Shown piece by piece: positions 25,382 through 49,230 of a stretch of 64,000 bases of DNA. The notes below the pieces were generated by a model. The model searched no databases and had not been told where the DNA came from. It was given only the letters and a program-made list of their open reading frames with translations. Within the stretch, counting starts at the first letter, position 1. Every line of letters begins with the position of its first letter. Origin of the DNA: Mytilus californianus (Eukaryota). Made by a program: the position numbers and the translations under genes. The stretch is from assembly GCF_021869535.1 (NCBI RefSeq), contig NW_026262701.1, positions 34,906,001 through 34,970,000 of the forward strand. The letters run 5' to 3'.

Positions 25382-28300
25382 AGTCAAGCACAAGTCAAGT
25401 ATATATATATATACCAAGAAATTTGTTTTGCATAAAAATTGCGGTTTTTATCCAACGCAATCATAGGTTTGAACGTTGTTTTCAATTTATATATATATTG
25501 CATACAATACCTGAATCAGTTGGACAGCCAATTAGGTCAAAACGCATGGAGATATGTGATAGCCAGTTGATTGGATGGATTCTGACGTACTGAGCAATGA
25601 TTGGACATCCTAACATGTTTGTAACTACTGATTCCTCATCTTTTAAGTTTCCCGTAAACTCCTACAAAGTGGAGTATAAATGCATGTGTTATGAAATTCT
25701 CTTCATATTTAATATGAATGAATTTGACAATATTGTGATCAATGTTTAGTTTTCTAAGTTTGATTATATTTTTCGTATAAGTTCTTTTTTTATTGCTATG
25801 TATTTTACAGTGTTATTGTCTATTGCAGTCAATTTTCACAAACAAAAATGTGTGTTATTCTCCTAATAAATGTGTTTACATACCTGCTTATTCCCTTGTG
25901 GGTCTTTAATGAATTCATATTTTGCACCATCAATACTGTATGAAACAGCAAATTTCGTCACTCTCTCATGACAACACTTGGTGACTATATCTACATTTCG
26001 TCCTTGTGTCACTACGCCTCGAATAGTACTCACTTTGTTTAGTTCTACCTACATGCAAAATCATGAAACTTAATACTCCCGTATCAGTTTTGGGGCATAT
26101 TAAGCAATAAAAACATAAATAAAGGAACATAGGTCCTTATGAAATAAAAAATACATATCTAGTGTTCACCTTATGTCCATCAACAATGATAAAGCAACTT
26201 CACTATATGACAAGATTTTTGGTACAACAATATAACGCAAATGCATTCAATTTATCATTCTGTCTGTGACTGTCCAAAGTCAGGAGCTGGTAATTCAGTG
26301 TTTGTCGTTTGTAGCTGTATATCATATTTGTTTTTCGTTCATGATTTTGTACATAAATCAGGTCGTTAATTTGATCGTTTGAATTCTTTTGCAATTATCA
26401 TTTCGGGGCCTTTAATAGCTGATTATGCGGTATGGGTTTTGCTCATTTTTGAAGACCGATAGCTGTTAACTTCTTTGTCATTTGGTCTCTGGTGGATAGT
26501 TGTCTGATGGCAATTATACCACATCTTCTTATTTCTATATTAATTCAAAACTTTAAACCTGATACAGGACGGACGAACGGACGGATGGTCACAGATAGGA
26601 AAACAGTACGCCCCTTACTTTCGAAAGCTGGTCATGAAAAATTCAAATTTCTTAGAATTACCTGAATGAATTGATTTTTATCATTAATTGCTGCAGACCA
26701 TCCACCTCCTAGTACTGTACCATTCTGAAAGTCTATTGTTGGTGTATGTAATCGTGCTCGATCAGCTCTAAAGTTGTTAGAGGATCCATTTGTAAAGAAT
26801 GTGGACGCCTGGATTTGTGTGTTGGTCACTCCTTTCGGACCGGAGACAAGGTACTGGTGACACACTTGATGACCTGTTAATTACTCCAAATTGTTAAGTT
26901 TTTTCATAATGAGGCTGTTAAAAGTTAAATAAGCAAACTATGCGTCTTTAGTTCGTCATTTCAGGAACTACGTGTGTTAAAAACTTGATGGAGAACATTA
27001 AATTGGGATATTCCTTTCATATATTGTTATTTCTTTATAGTTTATTCATGACAATTTTATCTTGTGTAGATACATTTCCACATCATGTGTTCATCTACCC
27101 CGTATCCTTCCTTTAAAAAAAATCAAAGTTACGACGGGTGCCACATGTGGAGCAGGATATTCTTACCTTCCGGAGCACCTGAGATCACTCTCGGTTTTTG
27201 GTGGGGTTAGTGTTTGCTCAGTCTTTAGTTTTCTATGTTGTGTTTTGTGTACTATTGTTTTTCTTGTCGTCGTTTTTCCCTTAAATTATCAGTTTGTTTT
27301 TTTTCTACTTATGAGTTTGAATATCCCTAGGGTATCTTTCGCCTCTCTTTTACAATAAAGATGCATACATGTGTATGTTAAGATAAAATTGATGGTATTT
27401 TACCAATAAATGTCCAACAACGGATCTTTTGTGCCTATAAATGCCGAAACACTACTCCCATATGGTATTTCTTTCATTCATCACCTTTTTTCAAAAAACA
27501 ATATTAACTTTGCTGTGTTCTTACCTGTTATTGTTTTGGCTGTAGGTATATGAGTGGTTGGTCTTACCTGTAAGTAGTTTGACTGTAGTATAGTAGGTAT
27601 GCTTACCTGTAAGTGGTATTTGACTGTAGTATAGTAGGTGTGCTTACCTGTAAGTGGTTTGACTGTAGTATAGTTGGTGTGCTTACCCGTAAGTGGTTTT
27701 ACTGTCGGTTTGACTGTAGTAGCAGGTGTGGTTGTAGTTGTGGTGGTGGTAGTAGTTGTTGGGACTGGATCACAATCATATATGATATCTAAATATTTGG
27801 GTACATTCTGACATGGATCTTCACCAAGAAATTGTGTGGACGCAGTGAGTTGACAGACATCCTTATTATTACACGCCTGTGCTATTTTCCCGGTTACCCT
27901 TCCGGATGAATAGCAATTTACTGATTGATGACTTCTGCACACTCTCGTTGATGTTCTTCCAAAATTAACACTTCTAATTTGTATAACTTCTCCTGACTGG
28001 CAGGAAATTGATTTTGTTTGAAAGTCACATATAATTGAGTTCACTAAAATATAGAAAATTCAGAAGTTTAAAACCAACCTTTAATGAGACGGGGCCATAA
28101 GAAAGAAAATGTGCGTTTGCCTCAGTTATGGTTTACCAAAATTAAAACAATGAATGACACTTGTAATTTTAATGATACAAAACGTGGTTCTGTCAGTAGT
28201 TCTCGTTTTTATTATTAACCATATGCTTTTCGTCTGAGTTGCATGTGCGCACAAATGATCTGGATGGTACACAGTTTCTATGTCGATATTCTTAAAGTTT

Positions 28301-30994: not shown

Positions 30995-32455
30995 CAACCA
31001 AAGATGAAGAACTGGATCTTCCATCACTGTATTGGATACCTAAACTACATAAGTGTCCTTACAAACAACGGTATATTGCTGGGTCTTCCAAGTGCTCCAC
31101 GAAACCTCTTTCTAAATTATTAACATCTATTTTATCAGCAATCAAAGCCGGGTTCCAAAGTTATTGTGAAACTGCCTATTCTAGAGGTGGCGTGAATAAG
31201 ATGTGGATACTAAAAAATTCCAAAAGATCTTTTAGAGTACATACAATCTAAGACTCTCTCATCTTTCAATAGTATTAAAACATTTGACTTTTCTACACTT
31301 TACACAAGTATTCCCCATTCCAAACTAAAAGACAAATTGAAAGAGTTGCTATTACTTTGTTTCATTAAAAAGAATGGCGAACGTAGATACAAGTATCTTG
31401 TCTTGGGAGGGATAAATCCTACTTTGTAAGGAATCACTCTGATTTAAACAAAAAATTCTCTGAAACTGACATTATCAAGATGCTTGATTTCTTGATTGAC
31501 AACATATTTGTTACGTTTGGAGGACGCGTTTTTCAACAGACTGTCGGAATTCCAATGGGAACCAATTGTGCCCCTCTTCTTGCCGACTTGTTTCTTTATT
31601 ATTATGAGGCTGACCTCATACAGGAACTTCTTAGGAAGAAAGATAAAAAGTTAGCAATATCCGTTAACTTTACGTTCCGCTATATAGATGATGTTCTCTC
31701 ACTAAATGATACAAAATTTGGTGACTATGTTGAACGAATCTATCCCATCGAACTAGAGATAAAGGATACTACAGATACAGTTAAGTCTGCCTCATATCTT
31801 GACTTACATCTAGAAATTGACAATGAGGGTCGGTTGAAAACAAGACTTTACGACAAAAGAGATGATTTCAGCTTCCCAATTGTGAACTTTCTATTTCTAT
31901 GTAGCAACATTCCAGCAGCGCCTGCATACGGAGTATATATCTCCCAATTGATACGATATTCCCGTGCTTGTATTTCCTTTCATGATTTCCTTGATAGAGG
32001 ATTGCTGCTCACAAGGAAGCTATTAAACCAAGAGTTCCAAATGGTGAAGTTGAAATCATCCCTTCGTAAATTTTACGGACGCCATCACGAGTTGGTTGAC
32101 CGTTATGGAATAACCGTTTCACAGATGATATCGGATATGTTCCTTATGTCGTAACTACAATGCCCTTCCCTTTTCACGAATGTGACCTACTGAATTAGAC
32201 TATTTACCGGATTTGTAATAACATAAGCAACACGACGGGTGCCACATGTGGAGCAGTATCTGCTTACCCTTCCGGAGCACCTGAGATCATCCCCAGTTTT
32301 TGGTGGGGTTCGTGTTGCTTAGTCTTTAGTTTTCTATGTTGTGTCATCTGTACTATTATTTGTCTGTTTGTCTTTTTATTTTTGGCCATGGCGTTGTCAG
32401 TTTGTTTTCGATCTATGAGTTTGACTGTCCCTCTGGTATCTTTCGTCCCTCTTTT
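30995..32455 (+). mobile_element. 5'-truncated Naiad-type Penelope-like element (RT plus 3' UTR)
   Basis: LPSLYWIPKLHK...YIAGSSKCSTKP, GIPMGTNCAPLLADLFL and FRYIDD motifs; ORF 31480-32154; frameshifts upstream. Confidence 0.9.
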
Positions 32456-36340: not shown

Positions 36341-38923
36341 AAGTGTTTTTAAAAAATCTCTTTTTACTTCTTAGCTAAAACTTGTATAATTGTTTAATAC
36401 CACATGTTACAGTGACACTAAAGAGCAAAAGCCAAAACCAATAGTGATATACTCACAAATTGTAAAATTAAATCCCAACTGCATGTTTTTGTTATACATG
36501 TTATAGTAGTATTGTATTATATAAGACGATTTATTAGTAAATTAAAATATACGAAAAAACACTGTAATGTAAAGGCATACAAGATGTTATATTTCCGGAA
36601 AATTTTAAATTGTAATTTATACTTATGTTATAGTATAAGTATCAATAGGTAACCCTAAACCTATTATTTATAGTATTTAGGGCTTCTAAGGAGAAAGCTG
36701 TATCCTTAAAAGATTTATGCACAGCTTTAATGAAATAAAGTATATGTTTAAAAAAAAAAGAAAAAAAAAAGAGTAAGAACAGAAAAGTCGTCCCGTATAT
36801 CATAAAAATGGTATGAAGATTTACCATGAGAAGTTATAATATCAAAGACCAAAATGTTATCGATCTCTATGTATGTTTGTTTAAGTAAGGACAGTTTATT
36901 TGCTATATAATAGTATCCTATATCATGATTATAATATTGCCAAATAAAGGACAGTCCTACAAGGTTACCCTTTATTTGGCATATTTGTTAGAGTTCATGT
37001 ACTAGAAATATTGTTTCTATTTAAGTAGCCGAAATAAAACGTTTATAAAATTTAATTTTCAGAAAGTCAGGTGAAATAAAATTTACAACGTTTAAAAAAA
37101 AAAACATATTTGGCTGATGCAAATTGTGTAACCTAAGCCTATATCAAATTTGTGTTATATTCACCATGTTACTCGGATTGATCCTTTCACGCATTAGAAT
37201 TTCCTCTTTCATAGTGCTTGTCATGATTATATGTAAAGGCATACAAGATATCTGTACCCGACGAGAATATGTATATATTTTGCACATCAACATCATTAGC
37301 ATGTGGTAAGGGTTGATTGGGGTATAGAAATATGACAGTAAAACCTGTGCTAAAGCGAGTCGTCAATTGAATGTGCTGGATGTATAAATACGCAGCCACG
37401 TCCGTTGAGAATGGGATGTTAAATCCGATTCAATTGCCTTCTTTTGGGAGTTATTGTCTTATAAGTTAAAACTATAGTTTTAAACCGATTTTCATGTGAT
37501 TTGCCTGTAATCTGGAAAATAGTTATAGATAAAACTGTAAAAACATTCACGGTATCAATTTTAATGCACCATAAGCGCGCCAATCTTTCTGCAGTGATGC
37601 TCGAGGCAAAAATATTCAATAATCTTATACAAACGTAAAAGAGGTGATAAAACCTGAAAGGAATAACAGTAAAGGCAAACAGTGTTAAACAATATAAATG
37701 ATTGTCAAGGGATTATCTACAAAATTGCTAATATAACTAACACCATCAATTGACGGCTTATAGGAGTTATTACCCGTTTAAGCAAATGTTGAATTATTTT
37801 CAATATTAAAGTGAAGGCCTGCTATCTAGGAAACTATACTATATAATCAGAAACTGAAAACAGTAGAAATTGTCATCAAGGCTAGATAATCAAAGAAGTC
37901 ACAAAATAAAAACTGTCAGTTGATTTTTATTAGGGTTATTGCCCTATAATGAAGGATCATGAAGATTTTAATGAACTTTGATATTTATTAGATTTTATCC
38001 AGAAAACAATAAAGAATAAGAAGAAACCGTAATAGGCGAAATTGAAAAAAACAAGCAAATTGAGATCTAAAAATAATTCCATTGGTCCTCTTAGTTAAGG
38101 ACAAATGATTTAAGGAAAGGTTGTGTGGGGGTTGGAGAATTTTACGAAAATAAAATGTTATCACGAATTTTACTTAAAGAACTAATGTGATCCTAATACT
38201 GGAGAAAGCACAAATTATTCGCTTTAATGTTACTTGAGTGCTTACAAAAAGATGCATAAAAAATATTTGTGAATAAGTTATCTGATTGTATTCTAATACA
38301 AAACAATACTGCGAAAAAAAGTCAAAATAAAAATATCATTTCAGTATATTTTTGTCCGGTGAGCGATTCAGGGGTTTGAGTCTCTTGTCATAATGATAAT
38401 TTGTCAAAATGTACTGCATTTGCAGAACAAATAAAAACAACTATCATCATGGTTATATCTTTTTCTTTGTTTGTTAAAAACGTTCATTAATCGATATTCG
38501 AATGAAGGTCGCTAAAAAGAGAGGACATAGTTTCCTTATGTAGCGTGTTTCGTCGAGTATGCATTCTTGGTGGAATAGATTAAAGTTAAAAAAAATGTGT
38601 CCCATAAAAGCACGTTTTCATATATATACATCGTAAGAAAGCATTCAACTGATATATTTATTAAAGGTATTGGTCACATGACGTAGTTACGGTCAAGTGA
38701 TTGTTTACTATAAACACGTGTGTGTGTTTACATCAAGCACATGGTGTGTGTTTATGTTCTATTTGATTGGATGGCATATACCCGCAATGCGGTTTTTACG
38801 GGTATATGCGCTCATGAGATTCGTGAAAAGCATGATTAAGTATTACTTAAGGGGTTCGTTTGAGAAAATAAAGTTATTCGAAGTTTGCCTATAGTTAACG
38901 TAGCAGCAGTTCGTTATTGTGGT

Positions 38924-39688
38924 ATGTCTGACTACGAGAAACTTCTAGATTCTGACCATGAATCTTTGCCTGGTCCTAGTGTACATTCGTTGCCTGATGG
39001 TAGTTCTGCACATCATACTGGTAATAACGACTTGGTTGATACATTCTCGCTGTTTAAAACCTATCTTGACGGGAAGATCGCTACTCTTCACAAAGACTTG
39101 GCCGTTGGCAATGAGAACTTCGCTACCAAACTCAAGCAAGAAGTGTCAGTTAAACTTAAAGGTGAGGGTAACCAGATACAGTTCAATTTCAATTGTGAAA
39201 TTATGGCCGACCTTGTTAAGCTTCAGAAGCGTATTCCTGATGAAGATGCAGCATGTCTTAAATTGGTATCTGGTGCTATCCTCAAAGTTAAGAAGCGTAA
39301 TAAACTCATCCGCATTGCAGACAAATCTCCCGCAGGCTGGAAAACCGTCCGCGAATATGAGAGTGACGACCTTGCCTCCGACTCAGAAGATGAGAAACGC
39401 ATTCGTTCTGCAGAAAGCCGTGCCATTAGGAGTATCAAGGAAAAGAAAAGACCTCATCCTTATAGAACCGTTACAGCTACTGTTTCTGCTCCTCCTGCTC
39501 CAATGCCCAATCAACACAATGTTCGACAAAACAATTATCAACAGCCGCCCTTTCGGACCAGCAGACGGAGGGAACCCTCATCTCATGACATCTGTTACAA
39601 CTGCAACCAGCTTGGTCACTGGCGAACTCAGTGCCCCCTTTTCAGTACAAAACCAGCTGTCCCAGGGACATCAAGGCAACAGAGTTAA
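38924..39688 (+). CDS. Gag-like ORF1 with CCHC zinc knuckle
   Basis: First ATG at 38924 (MSDYEKLL); CYNCNQLGHWRTQC near the C terminus. Confidence 0.85.
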   Translation: MSDYEKLLDSDHESLPGPSVHSLPDGSSAHHTGNNDLVDTFSLFKTYLDGKIATLHKDLAVGNENFATKLKQEVSVKLKGEGNQIQFNFNCEIMADLVKLQKRIPDEDAACLKLVSGAILKVKKRNKLIRIADKSPAGWKTVREYESDDLASDSEDEKRIRSAESRAIRSIKEKKRPHPYRTVTATVSAPPAPMPNQHNVRQNNYQQPPFRTSRRREPSSHDICYNCNQLGHWRTQCPLFSTKPAVPGTSRQQS

Positions 39689-41702
39689 TGATAAGTATTT
39701 TGATACTACTTTTTTAGATGAAAGCAATCTTTACGGACAGTTTGAACTGGTTCTGTCACATGCTAAATATTTTGATAATATTGATATTTCATCTGTTGCA
39801 AAAGGGGTAAAATATAGTTTACGCAAGCATATACAATTCTGGAAACATATAGGTGCAAATGAATTTGTTATCAATACTATCCAACATGGTTACGTTATTC
39901 CATTTTTGCAGACTCCTACATCTATGTCATTTAAGAATAACAAATCTGCAAATGTTCATTCTAAATTTGTAAATGAAGCAATTTCAGAATTACTGAATAT
40001 CGGATGTGTTATTGAAACTCCATTTCAACCGTTTGTTGTAAATCCGCTAAGTGTTGCAGTTCAAAGTTCGGGCAAAAAACGTCTGATTTTAGATTTAAGT
40101 GAACTGAATGTTTTTATTAAAAAAGAAAGAATAAAATTTGAGGACTGGAAAGTGGCTTTAAATTATTTCACAAAAGATTGCTATCAATTTAAATTTGATC
40201 TTAAGTCTGGATATTTTCATTATGACGTATGTACTAAACAACAAACATATTTAGGATTTTGCTGGAACGAAAAATTTTACTGTTTTACAGTGTTAGCCTT
40301 TGGTCTATCATCTGCTCCATATCTTTTCACAAAATGTCTACGACCAATCGTAAAATATTGGCGAGAAAATGGCGTAGATATTGTACTTTACTTAGATGAT
40401 GGACTTGGAATGGGTAAAAATAAACAAGAAGCTTCCGAATGTTCATCTTTCGTGAAAACCTCCTTGTTAGAAGCAGGGTTTTTAATTAACATGGATAAAT
40501 CTATTTTTGAGCCAGTACAATGTTTAGAGTGGTTAGGTTTAGTTTGGGATTCGTCTGATTTTTCAATTAGTATATCAGATAGACGGATTGATAATACACT
40601 TACATCATTGGTTGATATTTTGAATAACTTTCCTAATTTCACAGCACGTAAATTGGCTCAGGTAACGGGAAAGGTAATTTCTATGTGTCCAGTCATGGGT
40701 AACATAACTAGTTTAATGACCCGTTATTTACACTGGGCAATTGAATACAGAGTAAAGTGGGATTTAAAGTTAATATTGGAATGTCCTGATTGTGTATTTA
40801 ATGAGCTCACATTTTGGCTGAATAACATTAAAAGATTGAACAGAAAACATTTAGCAGGTTATTCTTTTCCTCACGTGCTTGTATATTCTGATGCCAGTAA
40901 CGTAGCTGCTGGTGCTTACTCGATAGATATTGACTCTAATATTTTTCATCAGATGTGGACTTTACAAGAGTCCCTAAAGAGTTCTACATGGAGAGAACTT
41001 CAAGCTATTTTGTTGGCTTTGATGTCGTTTAAGAACCGTTTAAGAAATAAATGTGTTAAATGGCATACAGATAATAATAACTGTGTTTCCATTGTTCAGA
41101 AAGGAAGTGCAAAAGTACATTTACAAGAGATAGCTATTAATATTTTTAAGTTGTGTTCTGAATTGAATATTACTTTAGATGTTGTTTGGATCCCGAGATC
41201 TAAGAATACAAAAGCTGATTATATTTCTAAAATGATTGATATAGAAGACTGGGGAACAAATAAAGAATTTTTTAAATTAGTAGATAATATGTGGGGTCCG
41301 CATACTGTGGACAGGTTTGCGAGTAATTTGAATAAAAAATTACCAAGATTTAATTCCAAATTCTGGAATCCAGGTGTTGAAGCAGTTGATGCGTTCACGC
41401 AAAATTGGAAAAATGAAGTAAATTGGATTGTTCCTCCAATTTCCGTTGTCTGTAGAGCAATCAAACATTTGATTTTATGTAAGGCTAGAGGCACTTTGAT
41501 AGTTCCAAAGTGGCCTTCCTCGTCATATTGGACAATGATTTTTAAAAAAGGTTCGCATTTGCAACCCTATGTAACTGATGTTTTAGAATTTCAACCAAAT
41601 CAGAACATTTTTATTCATGGTATGAATAATAAGTCCTTGTTGGGATTTTCTGAATTCGTTTCTAGTGTTTTAGCTATTAGATTGAACGCTCAGTTCATGT
41701 AA
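38958..41702 (+). CDS. Pol: reverse transcriptase, RNase H and methyltransferase-like domain (true start uncertain, overlaps gag)
   Basis: FDLKSGYFH, AFGLSSAP, YLDD; RNase H YSDAS/RELQAI/TDN/ADYISK; C-terminal VDRFAS...NWIVPP...GTLIVPKW. Confidence 0.9.
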   Translation: MNLCLVLVYIRCLMVVLHIILVITTWLIHSRCLKPILTGRSLLFTKTWPLAMRTSLPNSSKKCQLNLKVRVTRYSSISIVKLWPTLLSFRSVFLMKMQHVLNWYLVLSSKLRSVINSSALQTNLPQAGKPSANMRVTTLPPTQKMRNAFVLQKAVPLGVSRKRKDLILIEPLQLLFLLLLLQCPINTMFDKTIINSRPFGPADGGNPHLMTSVTTATSLVTGELSAPFSVQNQLSQGHQGNRVNDKYFDTTFLDESNLYGQFELVLSHAKYFDNIDISSVAKGVKYSLRKHIQFWKHIGANEFVINTIQHGYVIPFLQTPTSMSFKNNKSANVHSKFVNEAISELLNIGCVIETPFQPFVVNPLSVAVQSSGKKRLILDLSELNVFIKKERIKFEDWKVALNYFTKDCYQFKFDLKSGYFHYDVCTKQQTYLGFCWNEKFYCFTVLAFGLSSAPYLFTKCLRPIVKYWRENGVDIVLYLDDGLGMGKNKQEASECSSFVKTSLLEAGFLINMDKSIFEPVQCLEWLGLVWDSSDFSISISDRRIDNTLTSLVDILNNFPNFTARKLAQVTGKVISMCPVMGNITSLMTRYLHWAIEYRVKWDLKLILECPDCVFNELTFWLNNIKRLNRKHLAGYSFPHVLVYSDASNVAAGAYSIDIDSNIFHQMWTLQESLKSSTWRELQAILLALMSFKNRLRNKCVKWHTDNNNCVSIVQKGSAKVHLQEIAINIFKLCSELNITLDVVWIPRSKNTKADYISKMIDIEDWGTNKEFFKLVDNMWGPHTVDRFASNLNKKLPRFNSKFWNPGVEAVDAFTQNWKNEVNWIVPPISVVCRAIKHLILCKARGTLIVPKWPSSSYWTMIFKKGSHLQPYVTDVLEFQPNQNIFIHGMNNKSLLGFSEFVSSVLAIRLNAQFM

Positions 41703-41946
41703 GAATTTACGACAAGGCTGTTGAGCAAGGTCGTATGGTAAAGACAAGGCCAATCTAATGGCAAGGTCGTATGCTGATGACAAGGCCAAATTAAATAGGC
41801 AAGGTCTCACCTGACATGGCCAGTGTGAAAAATAAATCTGGCAAGGTCATTTAAATATATTGTAAGCTAGTAGTAGTATAGTAGATTATATTTCTATTTG
41901 ATATGCACGTTTTTCAGATATTTTTTCATGTGGAGTCTGGAAATCC

Positions 41947-42933
41947 TTGCCTAAGCCAGTTGACCAAGATTTATCATCTTTATCTAACTGCCTACCTGAG
42001 TTCTGTCTCTATTCGAAAGCCGAGAATACCAAAAGAAAATACTCTTATGCATTTAACAATTTCTGTAAGTGGTGTAATAAATATTCTTATGTTAAACCTT
42101 TACCAGCTTCAGATTTTTATGTTTCATTGTACTTAATACACATATCAAAGACATTTAACTCGTATGCTAAGGTTGAAGAAGCATATTATTCAATAAGCTG
42201 GGCTCACAAACTAGCTGGCTTTTCTAATCCGTGTAATTCACAGTTGTGTATATCGGTTAAAGAAGGAGCTCATAGAAAGATTGGACATATTATTGTAAAT
42301 AAAAAAGAACCAATTACGCCAGATATTTTAAAGAAAATTGTTAATAAATATGGTAAAGAATGTAACAATCTTATAGAAATTAGAATTTGTTGTATGTGTC
42401 TTATTAGTTACGCAGGCTTTTTAAGATTTTCTGAAATGGTAAATTTAAAAAGATCTGATTTAAGATTTGCTGATACACATGTCTCTTTGCTCATACAGAA
42501 AAGCAAAACTGATCGTTATAGAGAAGGCACACAAGTTTTAATTGCTAGAACAGATACACAAACATGCCCTGTTAGTATGTTGGAGAAATATTTGTTATTA
42601 TCCAATATAGATGCATCATCTTCAGATTATATATTTAGATCCATGTATTTATGTAAAAAATCTAGATCTTATAGACTGAGAGGTTTTAAACCTTTGTCAT
42701 ATACTAGAGTTAGAGAAATTATATTATCAGCTCTGGAATCTATCGGTTTAGATAAGTCAAAATTTGGATTACATAGCTTGAGATCAGGTGGAGCTACTGC
42801 AGCTGCATCAGCTGGCATTCATGATAGATTATTTAAGAAGCATGGTAGATGGGCTTCAGATAAAGCAAAAGATGGCTATGTAAGAGAAAATGTTAAAGAA
42901 AAACTGATAGTGTCTAAAAGTTTGGGAATTTAA
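41947..42933 (+). CDS. Tyrosine recombinase (no AUG start)
   Basis: RFSE, SKTD, HSLRSGGAT, HGRW and GYV catalytic motifs all present. Confidence 0.92.
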   Translation: MPKPVDQDLSSLSNCLPEFCLYSKAENTKRKYSYAFNNFCKWCNKYSYVKPLPASDFYVSLYLIHISKTFNSYAKVEEAYYSISWAHKLAGFSNPCNSQLCISVKEGAHRKIGHIIVNKKEPITPDILKKIVNKYGKECNNLIEIRICCMCLISYAGFLRFSEMVNLKRSDLRFADTHVSLLIQKSKTDRYREGTQVLIARTDTQTCPVSMLEKYLLLSNIDASSSDYIFRSMYLCKKSRSYRLRGFKPLSYTRVREIILSALESIGLDKSKFGLHSLRSGGATAAASAGIHDRLFKKHGRWASDKAKDGYVRENVKEKLIVSKSLGI

Positions 42934-44859
42934 TTTTTATAGATATACTATATATGTGTATTATTCTTTGCTCAGATCTGCTTGGCTTTCTTTGTCTTTC
43001 GAAAGGCTGCTACACCTGTAGGCACACTTATCCTATTTATGTTTTGTTTTATTTATTAAATAATTTATATTCGTTTGAGCTGGCGAATTAGAATATAAAT
43101 ATATTTATTAAAGGTATTGGTCACATGACGTAGTTACGGTCAAGTGATTGTTTACTATAAACACGTGTGTGTGTTTACATCAAGCACATGGTGTGTGTTT
43201 ATGTTCTATTTGATTGGATGGCATATACCCGCAATGCGGTTTTTACGGGTATATGCGCTCATGAGATTCGTGAAAAGCATGATTAAGTATTACTTAAGGG
43301 GTTCGTTTGAGAAAATAAAGTTATTCGAAGTTTGCCTATAGTTAACGTAGCAGCAGTTCGTTATATGTTTACCCACCCACCCACCCCTTTTATGAGTTGG
43401 GTATTGTTAACGTGGGCATATACATATATTACACTATATTAATATGAATTTTTCCTCTTTTGTAGATAGTTTTTGATTGTGTTACTGTATATTCTATTAT
43501 ATGATTGGATTGGTAGTGTGCTTGTCTGAATTATAGTGAAGGACTTTAGTTTGAAGAATTGTGAATGTAAATAATATTAAAGACTGCTACACCTGTAGGC
43601 ACACTTATCCTATTTATGTTTTGTTTTATTTATTAAATAATTTATATTCGTTTGAGCTGGCGAATTAGAATATAATTGGTATTTTTATCAGAGAGCATTC
43701 TTTGATACGATATGTCGATAAACCCGGTCTCGCCCTTTTTTGAGATTCCCTAAGTTTTCGTTGTTTCCTTGATTTGTCTCTTCTTCATCGATTTACGAGA
43801 TTTTGAACATCGGAAAACTACTGTCGCTTTAAATAATTCACTTGTACCTTTTTGGTGTTTTATTTTATACCAGTTTTAAAGAGTTGAGTGATTTTTTTTC
43901 TGGACTGGTTTTTATTTTATGAATTTCTTTAACATCTGAATTGTGCTAAATGCGCGAATGAAGGTCGCTAAAAAAGGAGGCCATAGTGTCCTTATGTAGC
44001 GTGTTTCGTCGAGTATGCATAATTGGCGGAATAGATTAAAGTTTTAAAAAATGTGTCCCAAAAAAGAACGTTTTCATATATATACATGGTAAGAAAGCAT
44101 TCAACTGTTGGTATTTTATCAGCGAGCATTCTTTGATACGATATGTCGATAAACCCGGTCACGCCCCTTTTTGAGATTCCCTAAGTTTTCGTTGTTTCCT
44201 TGATTTGTCTCTTAATCGATTTACGAGATTTGAACATTGGAAAACTACTGTCGCTTTAAATAATTCACTCGTACCTTTTTTGTGTTTTATTTTATACCAG
44301 TTTAGAGAGTTGAATTATTTTTTTCTGGACTTTTTTATTTTATGTATTTCTATATACCTTTTATCATTCCACTAATCGAGATTTAAAGGTAGAAGGTTGA
44401 CTGCTAAAAAACAGGTATTACACAGCCAAATGTGCTTCTCCTAGGTAAGAAACCTCTTCGGTGGTTTTCTTTACTCATATCTTAATGTTTTGTCGTTTAG
44501 GGAATTTGATGTTGATTGTTATTTTTGAGCCTCTTTTTGATTTATTCACAGCATTCCTATGTATACCTTCGTAGATTTGCAGTTTGACATATTACGTAAA
44601 CATTTGTCGATTGTTATGTTTCTAGATTTACATCCAAAGTATTTCTGTTCTTTAACACATTTCAAAGAATGTAAGTAAGTAAGTGAGTAAATCATTTATT
44701 ATAGTGACATGTGTAAATATGTACAAATTTTAACGATAAAACATAAGGAAATATGAATACACTCGGCCAAATGAAACAATAAATCATCTTAGATAATATT
44801 AAACATGTTTTTTCACGTTCTTGCAAATAACAAATTATTCATGAATTTATCTTCAATAC

Positions 44860-45289: not shown

Positions 45290-48200
45290 AAAACCAAAAT
45301 ACCGAACTCCAAGGAAAATTCAAATCGGAAAATTCCTTATCAAATGGCAAAAAAAAAAAGCTCAAACACAGCAAACGAATGGAAAACAACTGTCATATTC
45401 CTGACTTGGTACAGGCATTTCCTTATGTAGAAAATGGTGGATTAAACCTAGTTTTATAGCTAGCTAAACCTCTCACTTGTATGACAGTCGCATAAAATTC
45501 CATTATATTGACAACAATGTGTGAACAAAACAAACAGACATAATAGGTAAAATACAAAAAATGACCACAGTACAACACATTGGCGGGATGCTTAAGTACC
45601 GAGCCACGCCAAAAGGATATTACCAAAATTGGACTAAACAGTAAAGGTTAATAATTTACAAAGGCAAATAAATTAACACTATAACACGTAATTAAGATGA
45701 TAAACAAGGTCAGTAGAATCTATACATTTGTGAAGTTGATACGGAATATTTGTCAACAAGGTTGGTATCTTCCGATGAACATTTTTTTAGAAAAAGGACG
45801 AGACGTTCTTTGACATAGGTAGCAATACACAGTTAGAAGTTTAGTTTCGCATTATGGCCATGGTGAATTTTTTAAATATGAAAGTTTTTGTACAATAAAA
45901 TTGATTTTTAGATAATTTAAGAATAATATAGCCTTCTTAGTGGGTTTATATGAACATTTAGATTGTTTTTAGCATGTTTTATAGGCCATTTTTCTGTTTG
46001 ACAGTCCGTATTTTCCTATCCGTACCGCCCATAGGTCCATAAATTATTGTAGTGTTTATCAACAAAGATTTTGCGCTCGATCTTTTCAATTCAATTTTAT
46101 AGAAAAACGAGCAGAAATGCATATGATTTTTTTTGGACCTCTTGATAGATATACGTCTATGGATTCAGGAAAGGTATCACTGTAATTGATTGAAATTTTC
46201 CTTTGGACCAAATTTTGTAGACTTTTGTGACATGTTCACCCCCTTTCTTTGCAATATTTTGTATCAAAGAAATGCAGATTGTTGCCATGGTTACACCCAA
46301 AAGAGATTATATTTCACCATTATAACCATTAGAAATCAAATCTATGGAAGATTTTCTTTCTATAAATATACACATGCATAACACAAATATTAAGCCTTAT
46401 TTGTTAGAAAGGAAGGGAAAGAGGGTGTTTAAAAATTATGAGTGTCAATTTTAAGTTTTTTTCCTAACTGTGTATTGCTACCATAACCCTGGTTCATCAA
46501 CTTTCTGCTCAGACACTGTTGACGTTTTATAAAGTCTGGGTAGCAGCTGCAAGCTCTTGAATACCGAATGAGTTGGGAAATGTATATCCCATATGCAGGT
46601 GAAGTTGGTTTATTGCTGCTAAGTTGGGGGGAATTGATAATTTCAAAATAAAATAGTCTCGTTTGTCATAGATTCTGGAACTGAGACGACCGCTTATGTC
46701 ATATTCGAGGTATAAGTCTAAAAAAGAGGCAGAGGAAGCCGTGTCTGTTGTTTCTTTAATTTCTAGTTCTGGAGGATACATTTGTGAAACCCAATCAGAA
46801 AAGATTGGACTGTTAAAGGAAAGAAAATCATCAATATATCTGAATGTGAAATCAAATGATCTGTCTTCTTTGATCTTCTTGATTTTTACAAGTGTCTGAA
46901 GGAACTCTGACTCATATGAAAATAAGAAGAGGTCGGCAAGGAGAGGCGCACAATTCGTTCCCATAGGAATGTCGACAATTTGTTGAAAAAGTCTACCTCC
47001 AATTTCAACAAATATGTTGTCAATAAGAAACTCCAGCATACTGATCACTTGTTCCTCTATGTAGCATGTTTTACCTTTTTGTTCACTTTTAACAAAATAT
47101 GCCGTATGGTATGCCAAAGTAATAAATTTATAGCGTATGCTACCATTTTTATATTGAAAAGCATTGTGGATTATTTCTTTTAGACGATTGTTCAATTTCA
47201 CATGGGAAATAGTGGTATACAGGGTTGAAAAATCAAAAGGTTTGAAAGCATTAATTTCAGAGAAAGATCGAGATTTAAAATTATCCAGAAGTTCTTTAGG
47301 GTTTTTTTAGAATCCACATATGGTTAATACCAATACGCGAGTAAACAGTTTACAGTATTTCTGAAGACCCTCTTTCACAGCGGACAGAATTTTTGTCAAT
47401 CTAATTGACAATTCCTTTGTAGAACATGCAGATGAGCCGGCAATGTACCGTTGTTTATACGGAATTTTGTGAAGCTTTGGTATCCAATACAAACAAGGTA
47501 AGTCCTCAGATTTGCTGTTCAATGTAATGTTCATTGAAGCCATGATTAGGACTTATGATTCACCAAAATCTCATCCTTGTCAAATGATATGTTTTTGTAT
47601 GTGGATTACCTGAGTGTTTTTTTACTCCTAATTCTTTTACAAGATATTCGTAGTAGTACGATTTACATACAAAGACAATATTATTTGAAGCTTTGTCCAT
47701 CGGAACAACAACATATTTATCGTGTAGAGATGATAGACATTTTACAGCTTCTTTGTCTCTGAAAACGGACTTTGGTCGATCATTTACACAGTTTTTCAAC
47801 TTATAAATTCGACGTTTTATCAGAGACCTGATTGTTTTGACCCATTCTGACAAAGTGTCCAGTTCAACTTCTTCTCGTTTAGCCCTTGCTCTGGCGTAGT
47901 CCTCAATGGAATCCATGCGTATTTTTGAAGTTATGGTTCCAATTGATGTGTTGGGGTTCCTTCGGAGATGTTCTTGTTGAATTATGTTAGATCCCCAGTA
48001 ATATCATGGCCAGAGGGGCTGTAAATATAAGGCGAGTGGGAACAGTCACATGTCAGAGGGTTTTTTCTTCTTCTAAATCAAGGTCCTGCAATGCTTGCTT
48101 ATAGCTAAATACTTTAGGTGCAATGGTTTTGGTGTAACTGTAGGATACAATAGGAACAGACTGGTTTTGAAAATAAAGTGGAATTTTAGATGTTGCCTCC

Positions 48201-49230
48201 TTGTGATGAAAAACGTTGCTGATGTTGATTGCATCAATTCCTTTATTCAAAAACTGAACTGGAAGGAATTACCTCTTTTCATCATTTAAAGGTTCCGATC
48301 TTACTGGTTTAAAAAGACGGAAAAGAGCTTCATCACAAATTATACTGACCCGTCTGTATATTGGAGAAAATGTATTTATGCATCCCTTTTCAAGTGCATA
48401 ATCTCTCAAACATTTTAGAAAATTAACAGGCAGTGAAAAAAAGAATAGTTCTAATGTAATGTAACCCTAGCGGATGGTGAAGGTGTGAAAAAGGTCATCA
48501 AAGCCCCCAGAGGGCGATCTAGATTTGGAAGTATTTTTTACATTGGGCCGATAGTAATGTTTTTGCCCATGACTACGCTGGTGTTTTAAAGTGGTATTAA
48601 ATAAGCTCATTACATTTACATCACTGCAGGCTGGACTTGACAAATGTCCTACTCCTTTGATGTTATCATTGCAACTATTCGGCATTGCAGTACCTAGTTC
48701 CCTTATCCAGAAATTTTCTCTATCTTTTCGGAAAGGAGTACTTAGTATAGGGCTATTGGTGTGGTGATAAATTTTCTCGATGATGCGTACTTTCATAGAT
48801 AAAGGATCATGGTCCGGTTGATTAAAATGGTTATAAAGAACCCTAAATTGCGGATCTTTATTATCAGACGGTGTTGATTCATCCTTTTACGCAAAGTGTG
48901 TCGAGTTTCACCAACATAAAGTAGTCCACACAAAGAACATTCAATTCTGTAAACGACATTGTCCGTGGAACAGTCCAGAGGTTCAAAAGATTTTGTAAAA
49001 TAAGCTTTTCCTGTTAAGTTACTAGTGAAATCTGGAGTCGTGATTAACATTCTACATGTCTTACACGTGCTCCTCTTTCCTTTTAATATATGTTTATAAG
49101 TAGAAAGGATAGTTGATTCACTTGTAGCAGGTGTCTTTAAACAGTCGAAAATATTAACGGTACATGGTTTTAATTTTTGAAAAGTATCTGAATTTTTTAA
49201 AGTAATAATTATCTTCTGGCTGTACATAAG
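45290..49230 (-). mobile_element. Near full-length decayed Naiad-type PLE (N-terminal GIY-YIG, CxC linker, RT, 3' UTR)
   Basis: CKTC...NVVYRIECSLCGLLYVGET...RMNQHR...RENFWIREL at 48650-49100; CDC motif at 48042-48050; LYWIPKLHK, IPMGTNCAPLLADL and FRYIDD downstream; multiple frameshifts. Confidence 0.9.
45818..46482. mobile_element. MITE, 19-bp TIR, 3-bp TSD (PIF/Harbinger-like)
   Basis: TIR GGTAGCAATACACAGTTAG; TSD ATA. Empty site visible in the paralogous PLE near 6870. Confidence 0.88.

Follow-up and report, generated by a model that had tools for sequence, protein, structure and literature searches.

A tyrosine-recombinase (YR) retrotransposon of the PAT-like group, 5024 bp long and lying on the plus strand at 38652-43675, is present in a 64,000-nucleotide stretch of the genome of Mytilus californianus (assembly GCF_021869535.1, contig NW_026262701.1, positions 34,906,001 to 34,970,000; this whole stretch is called here the window), and its pol gene stands between conserved AT and AC ends that look like those of an intron. 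We consider it probable that this is a young and polymorphic element, that its recombinase is likely obtained by splicing pol out, and that a predicted +1 shift within gag feeds both enzymes. What is more unusual about the element, its splice and frameshift signals, had been missed in the preliminary description of this DNA. The coordinates of all features are listed in Table 1.

All of the reverse transcriptase (RT), RNase H (RH) and methyltransferase (MT) regions fall inside the candidate intron. The exact removal of this segment was found in one contig of run X17 (guessed to be RNA, and carrying another species label), which skips 39691-41908 with AT..AC ends and no ambiguity at the joint. 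It was also found in an old genomic copy, about 80% alike (L172/L224, L224 being G000:C79:7299500-7306500), that has both element ends and the internal junction and lacks pol; its best junction among 900 pairs scored was 39690/41909. The donor anchor is present in 21 loci, and only L172/L224 runs straight into the YR exon. This copy reads as a reverse-transcribed spliced RNA, which suggests that reverse transcription and integration in trans may on rare occasions act on spliced RNA (1 of 21 donor loci). Another jump in L224, from 39028 to 39433, was considered as a second gag intron and rejected as a plain deletion, since it has no splice ends.

The same intron ends are found in much more divergent relatives. 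Among 20 diverged loci fetched from the genome, 12, whose YR is 50-64% alike, show YAC in the corresponding position ahead of YR, and 11 of them, plus the window copy, carry G/ATAAGT 5-53 bases after the gag stop and always in phase 1 of the +1 frame (12/12; L139, with a displaced gag end, was left out of the donor count). According to a tree made only of loci of the same genome and four homologues, both ends are kept in phase in 8/8 families of this clade. The AC acceptor lies in non-coding DNA. Given the codon use of pol (GAT in 109/137 Asp, AAG in 54/209 Lys), about 21% of Asp-Lys pairs should be encoded by GAT AAG, and the probability of eight such pairs by chance is near 3e-6 if the families are independent. 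The 5' site is U2-like (ATAAGT, not ATATCC). The annotation of a sister family contains the same structure: when RefSeq protein P0021 was placed on sister locus L133 (100% and 99.7%), the intron that it bridged had ATAAGT and TTAC ends, and in its cluster of 16 members 10 of the 15 listed are 481-aa models like P0021, the only one that was mapped. In addition, 31 of 37 ab initio homologues have [VLITA][RH] directly before F-S-D, as a YAC/RT acceptor would give (47 of 120 homologues matched the motif, and 10 spliced or truncated models were set aside). The other eight loci (L143-L150) are separated by a 95/94 branch of the tree, which is unrooted. Five of these eight show in-phase AG/GTA and YAG/ at the equivalent places, to judge by sequence only a GT-AG version of the intron; a GT donor was not found in L148 and L150, and the donor of L145 is out of phase.

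Several observations weigh against splicing at the AT-AC ends. No raw RNA read spans the junction: run X22 gave 14 element reads among 10.3 million (6% of the run), a cover too thin to show absence, and X15 and X19 have no such joint. Run X17 is itself a presumed RNA run, and its evidence is a single contig, with 30 letters on the shorter side of the joint, that may derive from a genomic processed copy; the RefSeq models, for their part, may lack read support. Besides, in models P0121, P0122 and P0042, which come from the same family and from others, GT donors are joined to an AG nine bases further on. YR could then be produced mainly by GT-AG splicing, with donors situated in gag or pol and TTTTCAG at 41917 as acceptor, the AT-AC junction being a minor side product. 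TTTTCAG or a near variant is indeed conserved before YR, in-phase GT donors exist at 39021, 39162 and 41479, and isoform P0121 joins a GTAAG donor in RT to this acceptor. However, no joint to 41918 appears among the joints listed for 8 runs, the only processed genomic copy found uses AT-AC, and both AT-AC ends are invariant in eight families, something unneeded for a side product, so that we regard this route as rather improbable. A donor at the end of pol (41699) was discarded, being out of phase with YR. As to a deletion of DNA or a template jump of the reverse transcriptase instead of splicing, the DNA runs do hold other internal deletions (e.g., 39335 to 41851), L224 carries further plain deletions and X17 may be DNA. 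Against this, microhomology is absent from the joint, and a run labelled as a different species and an old genomic copy share the junction to the base. The junction also brings YR back into frame and coincides with the ends that families with 50-64% YR identity have conserved; a deletion or template jump seems to us very improbable.

Splicing at the AT-AC ends would leave YR, like pol, in the +1 frame relative to gag. Of 21 loci, 18 have an in-frame TTT CGN at a distance of 40-58 codons upstream of the gag stop (in the window at 39551), the GT-AG clade included, and UUU_CGN is a published +1 frameshift motif (PMC5052127, PMC3498833). A +1 shift at this site giving Gag-Pol and Gag-YR is likely. 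The same in-frame UUU followed by CGN, with the downstream open reading frame (ORF) in +1, is described for influenza PA-X and amalgaviruses (PMC3498833, PMC5052127), although here the site is a predicted one, situated ahead of the zinc knuckle in the gag of a retrotransposon. Two facts speak against this view. TTT CGN is absent from 3 of the 21 loci (one family), and in the family of the window copy the +1 frame has an ATG of its own, at 38958, from which 244 codons run without a stop (none of 2000 recodings was as open). With such an open frame leaky scanning could also serve, that is, splicing would proceed as described and Pol and YR would start at the AUG at 38958. This is suggested by the 244 open codons where 13.4 stops are expected and by RefSeq models that start at a +1-frame ATG. 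Yet the open length varies by family (about 100, 127 and 246 codons in intact-looking copies), the openness of the last 90 codons is not significant in any of 8 loci, and TTT CGN stays at its distance from the gag stop also in the GT-AG clade. On balance leaky scanning appears unlikely.

Combining splicing with a frameshift, unspliced RNA would be translated into Gag and Gag-Pol (about 925 aa) and serve as template for reverse transcription, and spliced RNA would provide Gag and Gag-YR (about 596 aa). A weak AT-AC pair, read by the major (U2) spliceosome, would keep most of the RNA unspliced. The element ends would be rebuilt from the B1-A2 junction, and YR would join the element at exactly this junction, most likely exchanging only the minus strand.

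Evidence that the insertion is polymorphic came from DNA contigs. The preliminary description had pointed to an unoccupied site in the neighboring tandem unit and proposed a polymorphic insertion with no target-site duplication and no target loss, and all of this was borne out. The neighboring unit of the ~432-bp tandem repeat (376/400 aligned bases identical, 9 gap bases) has the unoccupied site at 44107/44108. In contigs of two runs from different studies, X1 and X2, position 38651 is followed directly by 43676; the site is polymorphic because these contigs skip exactly the 5024 bases. At the empty joint no letter fits both sides, and at this one site the empty allele and the paralogous site agree on the absence of duplication or loss. 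The joint was present in 2 of the 4 DNA runs examined and is flagged “between: not known”. The contigs cannot separate heterozygous from insertion-free animals, and X1 may be the source sample. A misassembly of the flanking repeat, raised beforehand as a possible objection, was looked for without any sign of it (the left flank in X1 is identical over 956/956 bases). An assembly artefact or a fixed old copy might still be argued from the fact that, among the matches listed, no contig piece spans the junction of element and flank. However, empty alleles exist, both ends are base-exact as in 22 other insertions, and the copy has 14 private sites of its own that are not those of another assembled copy, all of which makes this explanation scarcely credible. 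Targeting of the host repeat family was also considered and rejected, as the unit is a local duplication and the other insertions have unrelated flanks.

Collecting other insertion sites, as had been suggested, revealed a target preference. TAA, the last three bases of B, ends 13 of 29 left flanks (background 3%, p 9e-13; L072, with a broken right end, the duplicate L039 and one-ended loci were left out of the counts). The clean site without homology in the window, where the target CTG matches TAA at 0/3 positions, is an exception in the family, being one of three flanks without any match. The right end GAATATAA is kept in 23/23 two-ended insertions, and TAA remains on the right in 11/11 insertions with a non-TAA target. 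In the sister family (L133/L134) 20/20 right ends are fixed, including 15/15 at non-TAA sites, and TAA ends only 3 of 18 recovered left flanks (counted by eye).

A minus-strand-only exchange would explain both the tendency of targets to end in TAA and the element ends that never vary. A single exchange of this kind fits the integration pattern, and a blunt joint or a biased repair would fit too. It resembles the insertion of integron cassettes and CTX phage (PMC3458562, PMC3442271), in which the donor is single-stranded and the exchange of one strand would produce a one-sided result like the present one, although this is an analogy only, as no folded site was identified in the mussel element. 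Two points count against the minus-strand view: it is not separable from blunt joining with a sequence preference, and neither circle nor complementary DNA (cDNA) has been observed. An integration from a double-stranded circle, by two exchanges over a 3-bp TAA core with repair always towards the element, or by a blunt joint with a binding preference for TAA, has in our opinion slightly less than an even chance. The TAA enrichment fits a 3-bp junction model (PMC3266345, PMC7192593), and the DIRS1 model asks for an identical triplet at the junction (PMC3266345). Nevertheless, the identical triplet is lacking at 16 of 29 sites, and at 15 of 18 in the sister family. Moreover, if two strands were exchanged over a core with mismatches, the target triplet would be expected at the right end in some insertions, but none of the 26 mismatched two-ended sites of both families shows this reciprocal product. 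For DIRS-1 itself, the cDNA is reported as mostly linear and single-stranded, with no circle junction amplified (PMC7192593).

The anatomy leaves little doubt about the nature of the element, whose order is A1-gag-pol(RT/RH/MT)-YR-B1A2-B2. The preliminary description took both repeat pairs as identical, which holds for A (266/266) and not for B (96/97); the odd base, at 43583, is absent from all other aligned copies, and comparison with these copies fixes the length of B at 97 bp. The internal junction at 43098/43099 is, as had been claimed, exactly the right end followed by the left end. This sequence would be shared with a circle junction, but it cannot be read as the trace of a circle because it is standard PAT/Ngaro anatomy, present in every full copy. 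The three long frames (38864-39688, 38949-41702 and 41902-42933) are all open as stated, with the qualification that the YR frame lacks its own start codon, the first ATG being at 42394. In pol, the RT motif YLDD is at 40389 (RVT_1, E 1.7e-14) and the RNase H D-E-D residues at 40884/40989/41064, where the family matches are weak (E 0.004-0.08). After RNase H there is an MT-like domain (about 41220-41699; Pfam Dam, E 1.3e-5), also detected in 3/3 sister loci (E 2e-4 to 2e-6), all these Dam scores being slightly under the curated cut-off of 28.1 bits. The YR catalytic residues (R 42424, H-x-x-R 42772, H-x-x-W 42841, Y 42877) are on the same strand as the other genes. The spacer between pol and YR contains about eight CAAGG-containing units, and several sister loci carry short repeats, each its own, in this position; the region 41700-41870 folds better than its shuffles (z -3.39). 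An alternative reading of this spacer as holding nuclear-receptor binding sites was set aside. An ATTAAA at 43575-43581, at the start of B2 and not of B1, may serve as a poly(A) signal, in which case the RNA would terminate within B2.

All the PAT-like features examined were present, in the echinoderm form with a Gag zinc finger and internal repeats downstream of YR, and split direct repeats A1-B1-A2-B2 were also found in most sister loci. With the echinoderm Pat1-like elements of the order DIRS it shares the split repeats with the internal pair after YR, the Gag zinc knuckle, RT/RH/MT, the same-strand YR and the lack of target duplication (PMC4157794, PMC3266345); PAT-like elements are already reported from the mollusc Lottia (PMC4157794, PMC3266345). 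In contrast to them, pol is here a candidate AT-AC intron and YR does not overlap it, and the accessible text of these two papers gave no splice or frameshift route to YR. No AT-AC intron or spliced YR was found for PAT/DIRS-type elements in a literature search that had the main reviews and supplements outside its reach; PMC9210276 and PMC3266345 mention neither splicing nor introns, and nothing bearing on the subject was found in passages of PMC6681497, PMC9341512, PMC8226300, PMC9940879 and PMC13003380. Ngaro-like elements have the same repeat layout and gene order but no MT, and their YR has been proposed to arise by a -1 frameshift from pol (PMC13003380), whereas the mussel YR frame lies ~200 nt downstream of the pol stop. 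No long inverted repeat pair was found at the element ends, unlike in DIRS1-like elements, which are marked by inverted terminal repeats and an ICR. The closest named proteins are from Mytilus, and a search for fusions of the +1 extension to YR in other species returned 8 matches, all Mytilus, in which the only fusions are RefSeq models of the same sister family.

Regarding age, the copy searches scored the best 40 of 313 and the best 40 of 234 candidates, and copy counts are hence lower bounds. Among 20 stretches fetched, 10 had further full copies (two of them being one locally duplicated copy), eight had a 577-bp A-spacer-B form, one an A-ORFs-B form and one only a 5' part. Eight further copies differ by 0.49-0.73% from the window copy in a nearly star-like pattern, and all frames are open in 5 of 12 aligned copies. 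The insertion had been described as very recent and potentially active. The family is young indeed, and so is the window copy, but nothing dates the insertion to recent generations, given its 14 private sites (six of the ten in ORFs are non-synonymous) and the B1/B2 mismatch. Current activity was not borne out either, as none of the 14 reads of X22 is 99% alike. One private change is common to B1 (43043) and B2 (43620), and this single site would fit one repeat having been rebuilt from the other.

The 577-bp forms (L041-L049) are about as common as full copies among the young matches, and one reciprocal A-ORFs-B form exists (L045). We considered whether they form a non-autonomous element that amplifies by itself, and rejected this: no set of variants distinguishes the 11 short copies aligned, and each has 2-29 private changes, against 0-3 in the 7 youngest full copies. 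An origin as solos, through recombination between A1 and A2, is likelier. The locally duplicated copy (L038/L039, G000:C68:3104600-3118500) is one insertion duplicated with its flanks with a period of about 5.57 kb, and the internally deleted copy mentioned above was seen in DNA runs X1 and X8, with three extra letters at the joint. The sister PAT-like family L133/L134 (YR 60% alike; e.g., G000:C2:48663200-48671200) has dozens of near-identical copies and looks much younger than that of the window, with 40/40 scored matches 100% alike over a 200-bp B-A junction; it appears in RefSeq as “integrase/recombinase xerD homolog” genes.

Elsewhere in the window, 31387-32154 and 46527-49230 contain reverse-transcriptase and GIY-YIG-like frame fragments that, by their motifs, we take to be Penelope-like, and a minus-strand frame at 27481-28059 resembles, by its motif, a lectin domain of the rhamnose-binding (SUEL) type, with a Thr-rich repeat after it.

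Table 1. Features of the PAT-like element and its insertion site (positions in the window).
Feature	Position	Strand	Evidence or remarks
Whole PAT-like YR retrotransposon, 5024 bp	38652..43675	+	Repeats, copies; contigs with empty allele
Repeat A1, 266 bp	38652..38917	+	Identical to A2
gag, 254 aa from ATG	38924..39688	+	CCHC zinc knuckle near end; PF00098 E 1.7e-6
+1 frame: 246 codons overlapping gag, then pol	38949..41702	+	Open frame, domain matches
Predicted +1 ribosomal frameshift site CCC TTT CGG (gag frame)	39548..39556	+	UUU_CGN kind; putative function
Candidate AT-AC intron, 2218 nt, ends ATAAGT ... TGCAC	39691..41908	+	X17 joint, L172/L224, conservation, RefSeq P0021 on L133
pol-YR spacer inside intron	41703..41860	+	Repeated CAAGG units, predicted hairpins; 36-bp tandem repeat
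YR exon	41909..42933	+	PF00589 E 1.4e-11; second acceptor-like TTTTCAG at 41911-41917
Repeat B1, 97 bp	43002..43098	+	Repeat alignment
Repeat A2	43099..43364	+	B1-A2 junction at 43098/43099
Repeat B2	43579..43675	+	One mismatch to B1, at 43583; terminal TAA
Left half of interrupted host tandem unit	38499..38651	.	Target flank ends CTG
Right half of interrupted host tandem unit	43676..43931	.	Unit alignment
Neighboring uninterrupted unit	43955..44340	.	Paralogous empty site 44107/44108

U2-type AT-AC introns are among the rarest known, with 24 among 610,067 introns of five genomes in one survey, all of them in host genes (PMC1557818). Those of SCN4A/SCN5A and TAF2 have the same AT and AC ends and an otherwise U2-like 5' site, without ATATCC (PMC1557818). 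Differently from them, the one described here would be located in a mobile element, contain a whole gene and have to be retained often. Without the splice result this would be an ordinary young PAT-like insertion. A wider reading, which we put forward tentatively and hold to be possible though somewhat improbable as a whole, is that there is a widespread mollusc PAT-like clade in which pol is a retained U2-type AT-AC intron, changed from or to the GT-AG of the sister clade, one +1 shift in gag gives Gag-Pol or, by splicing, Gag-recombinase, and integration proceeds by an integron-like single exchange of minus-strand cDNA. There has been little experimental work so far on how the third gene of PAT and DIRS elements is expressed or how their recombinase chooses its target, and this family suggests testable answers exact to the base: where the splice would take place, where the frame would shift, which targets are preferred and, for one polymorphic insertion, what the empty allele looks like. 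If true, a conserved AT-AC intron that gates copying versus integration, and that has a GT-AG counterpart in the sister clade, would let the switching of intron ends be studied as a natural experiment.

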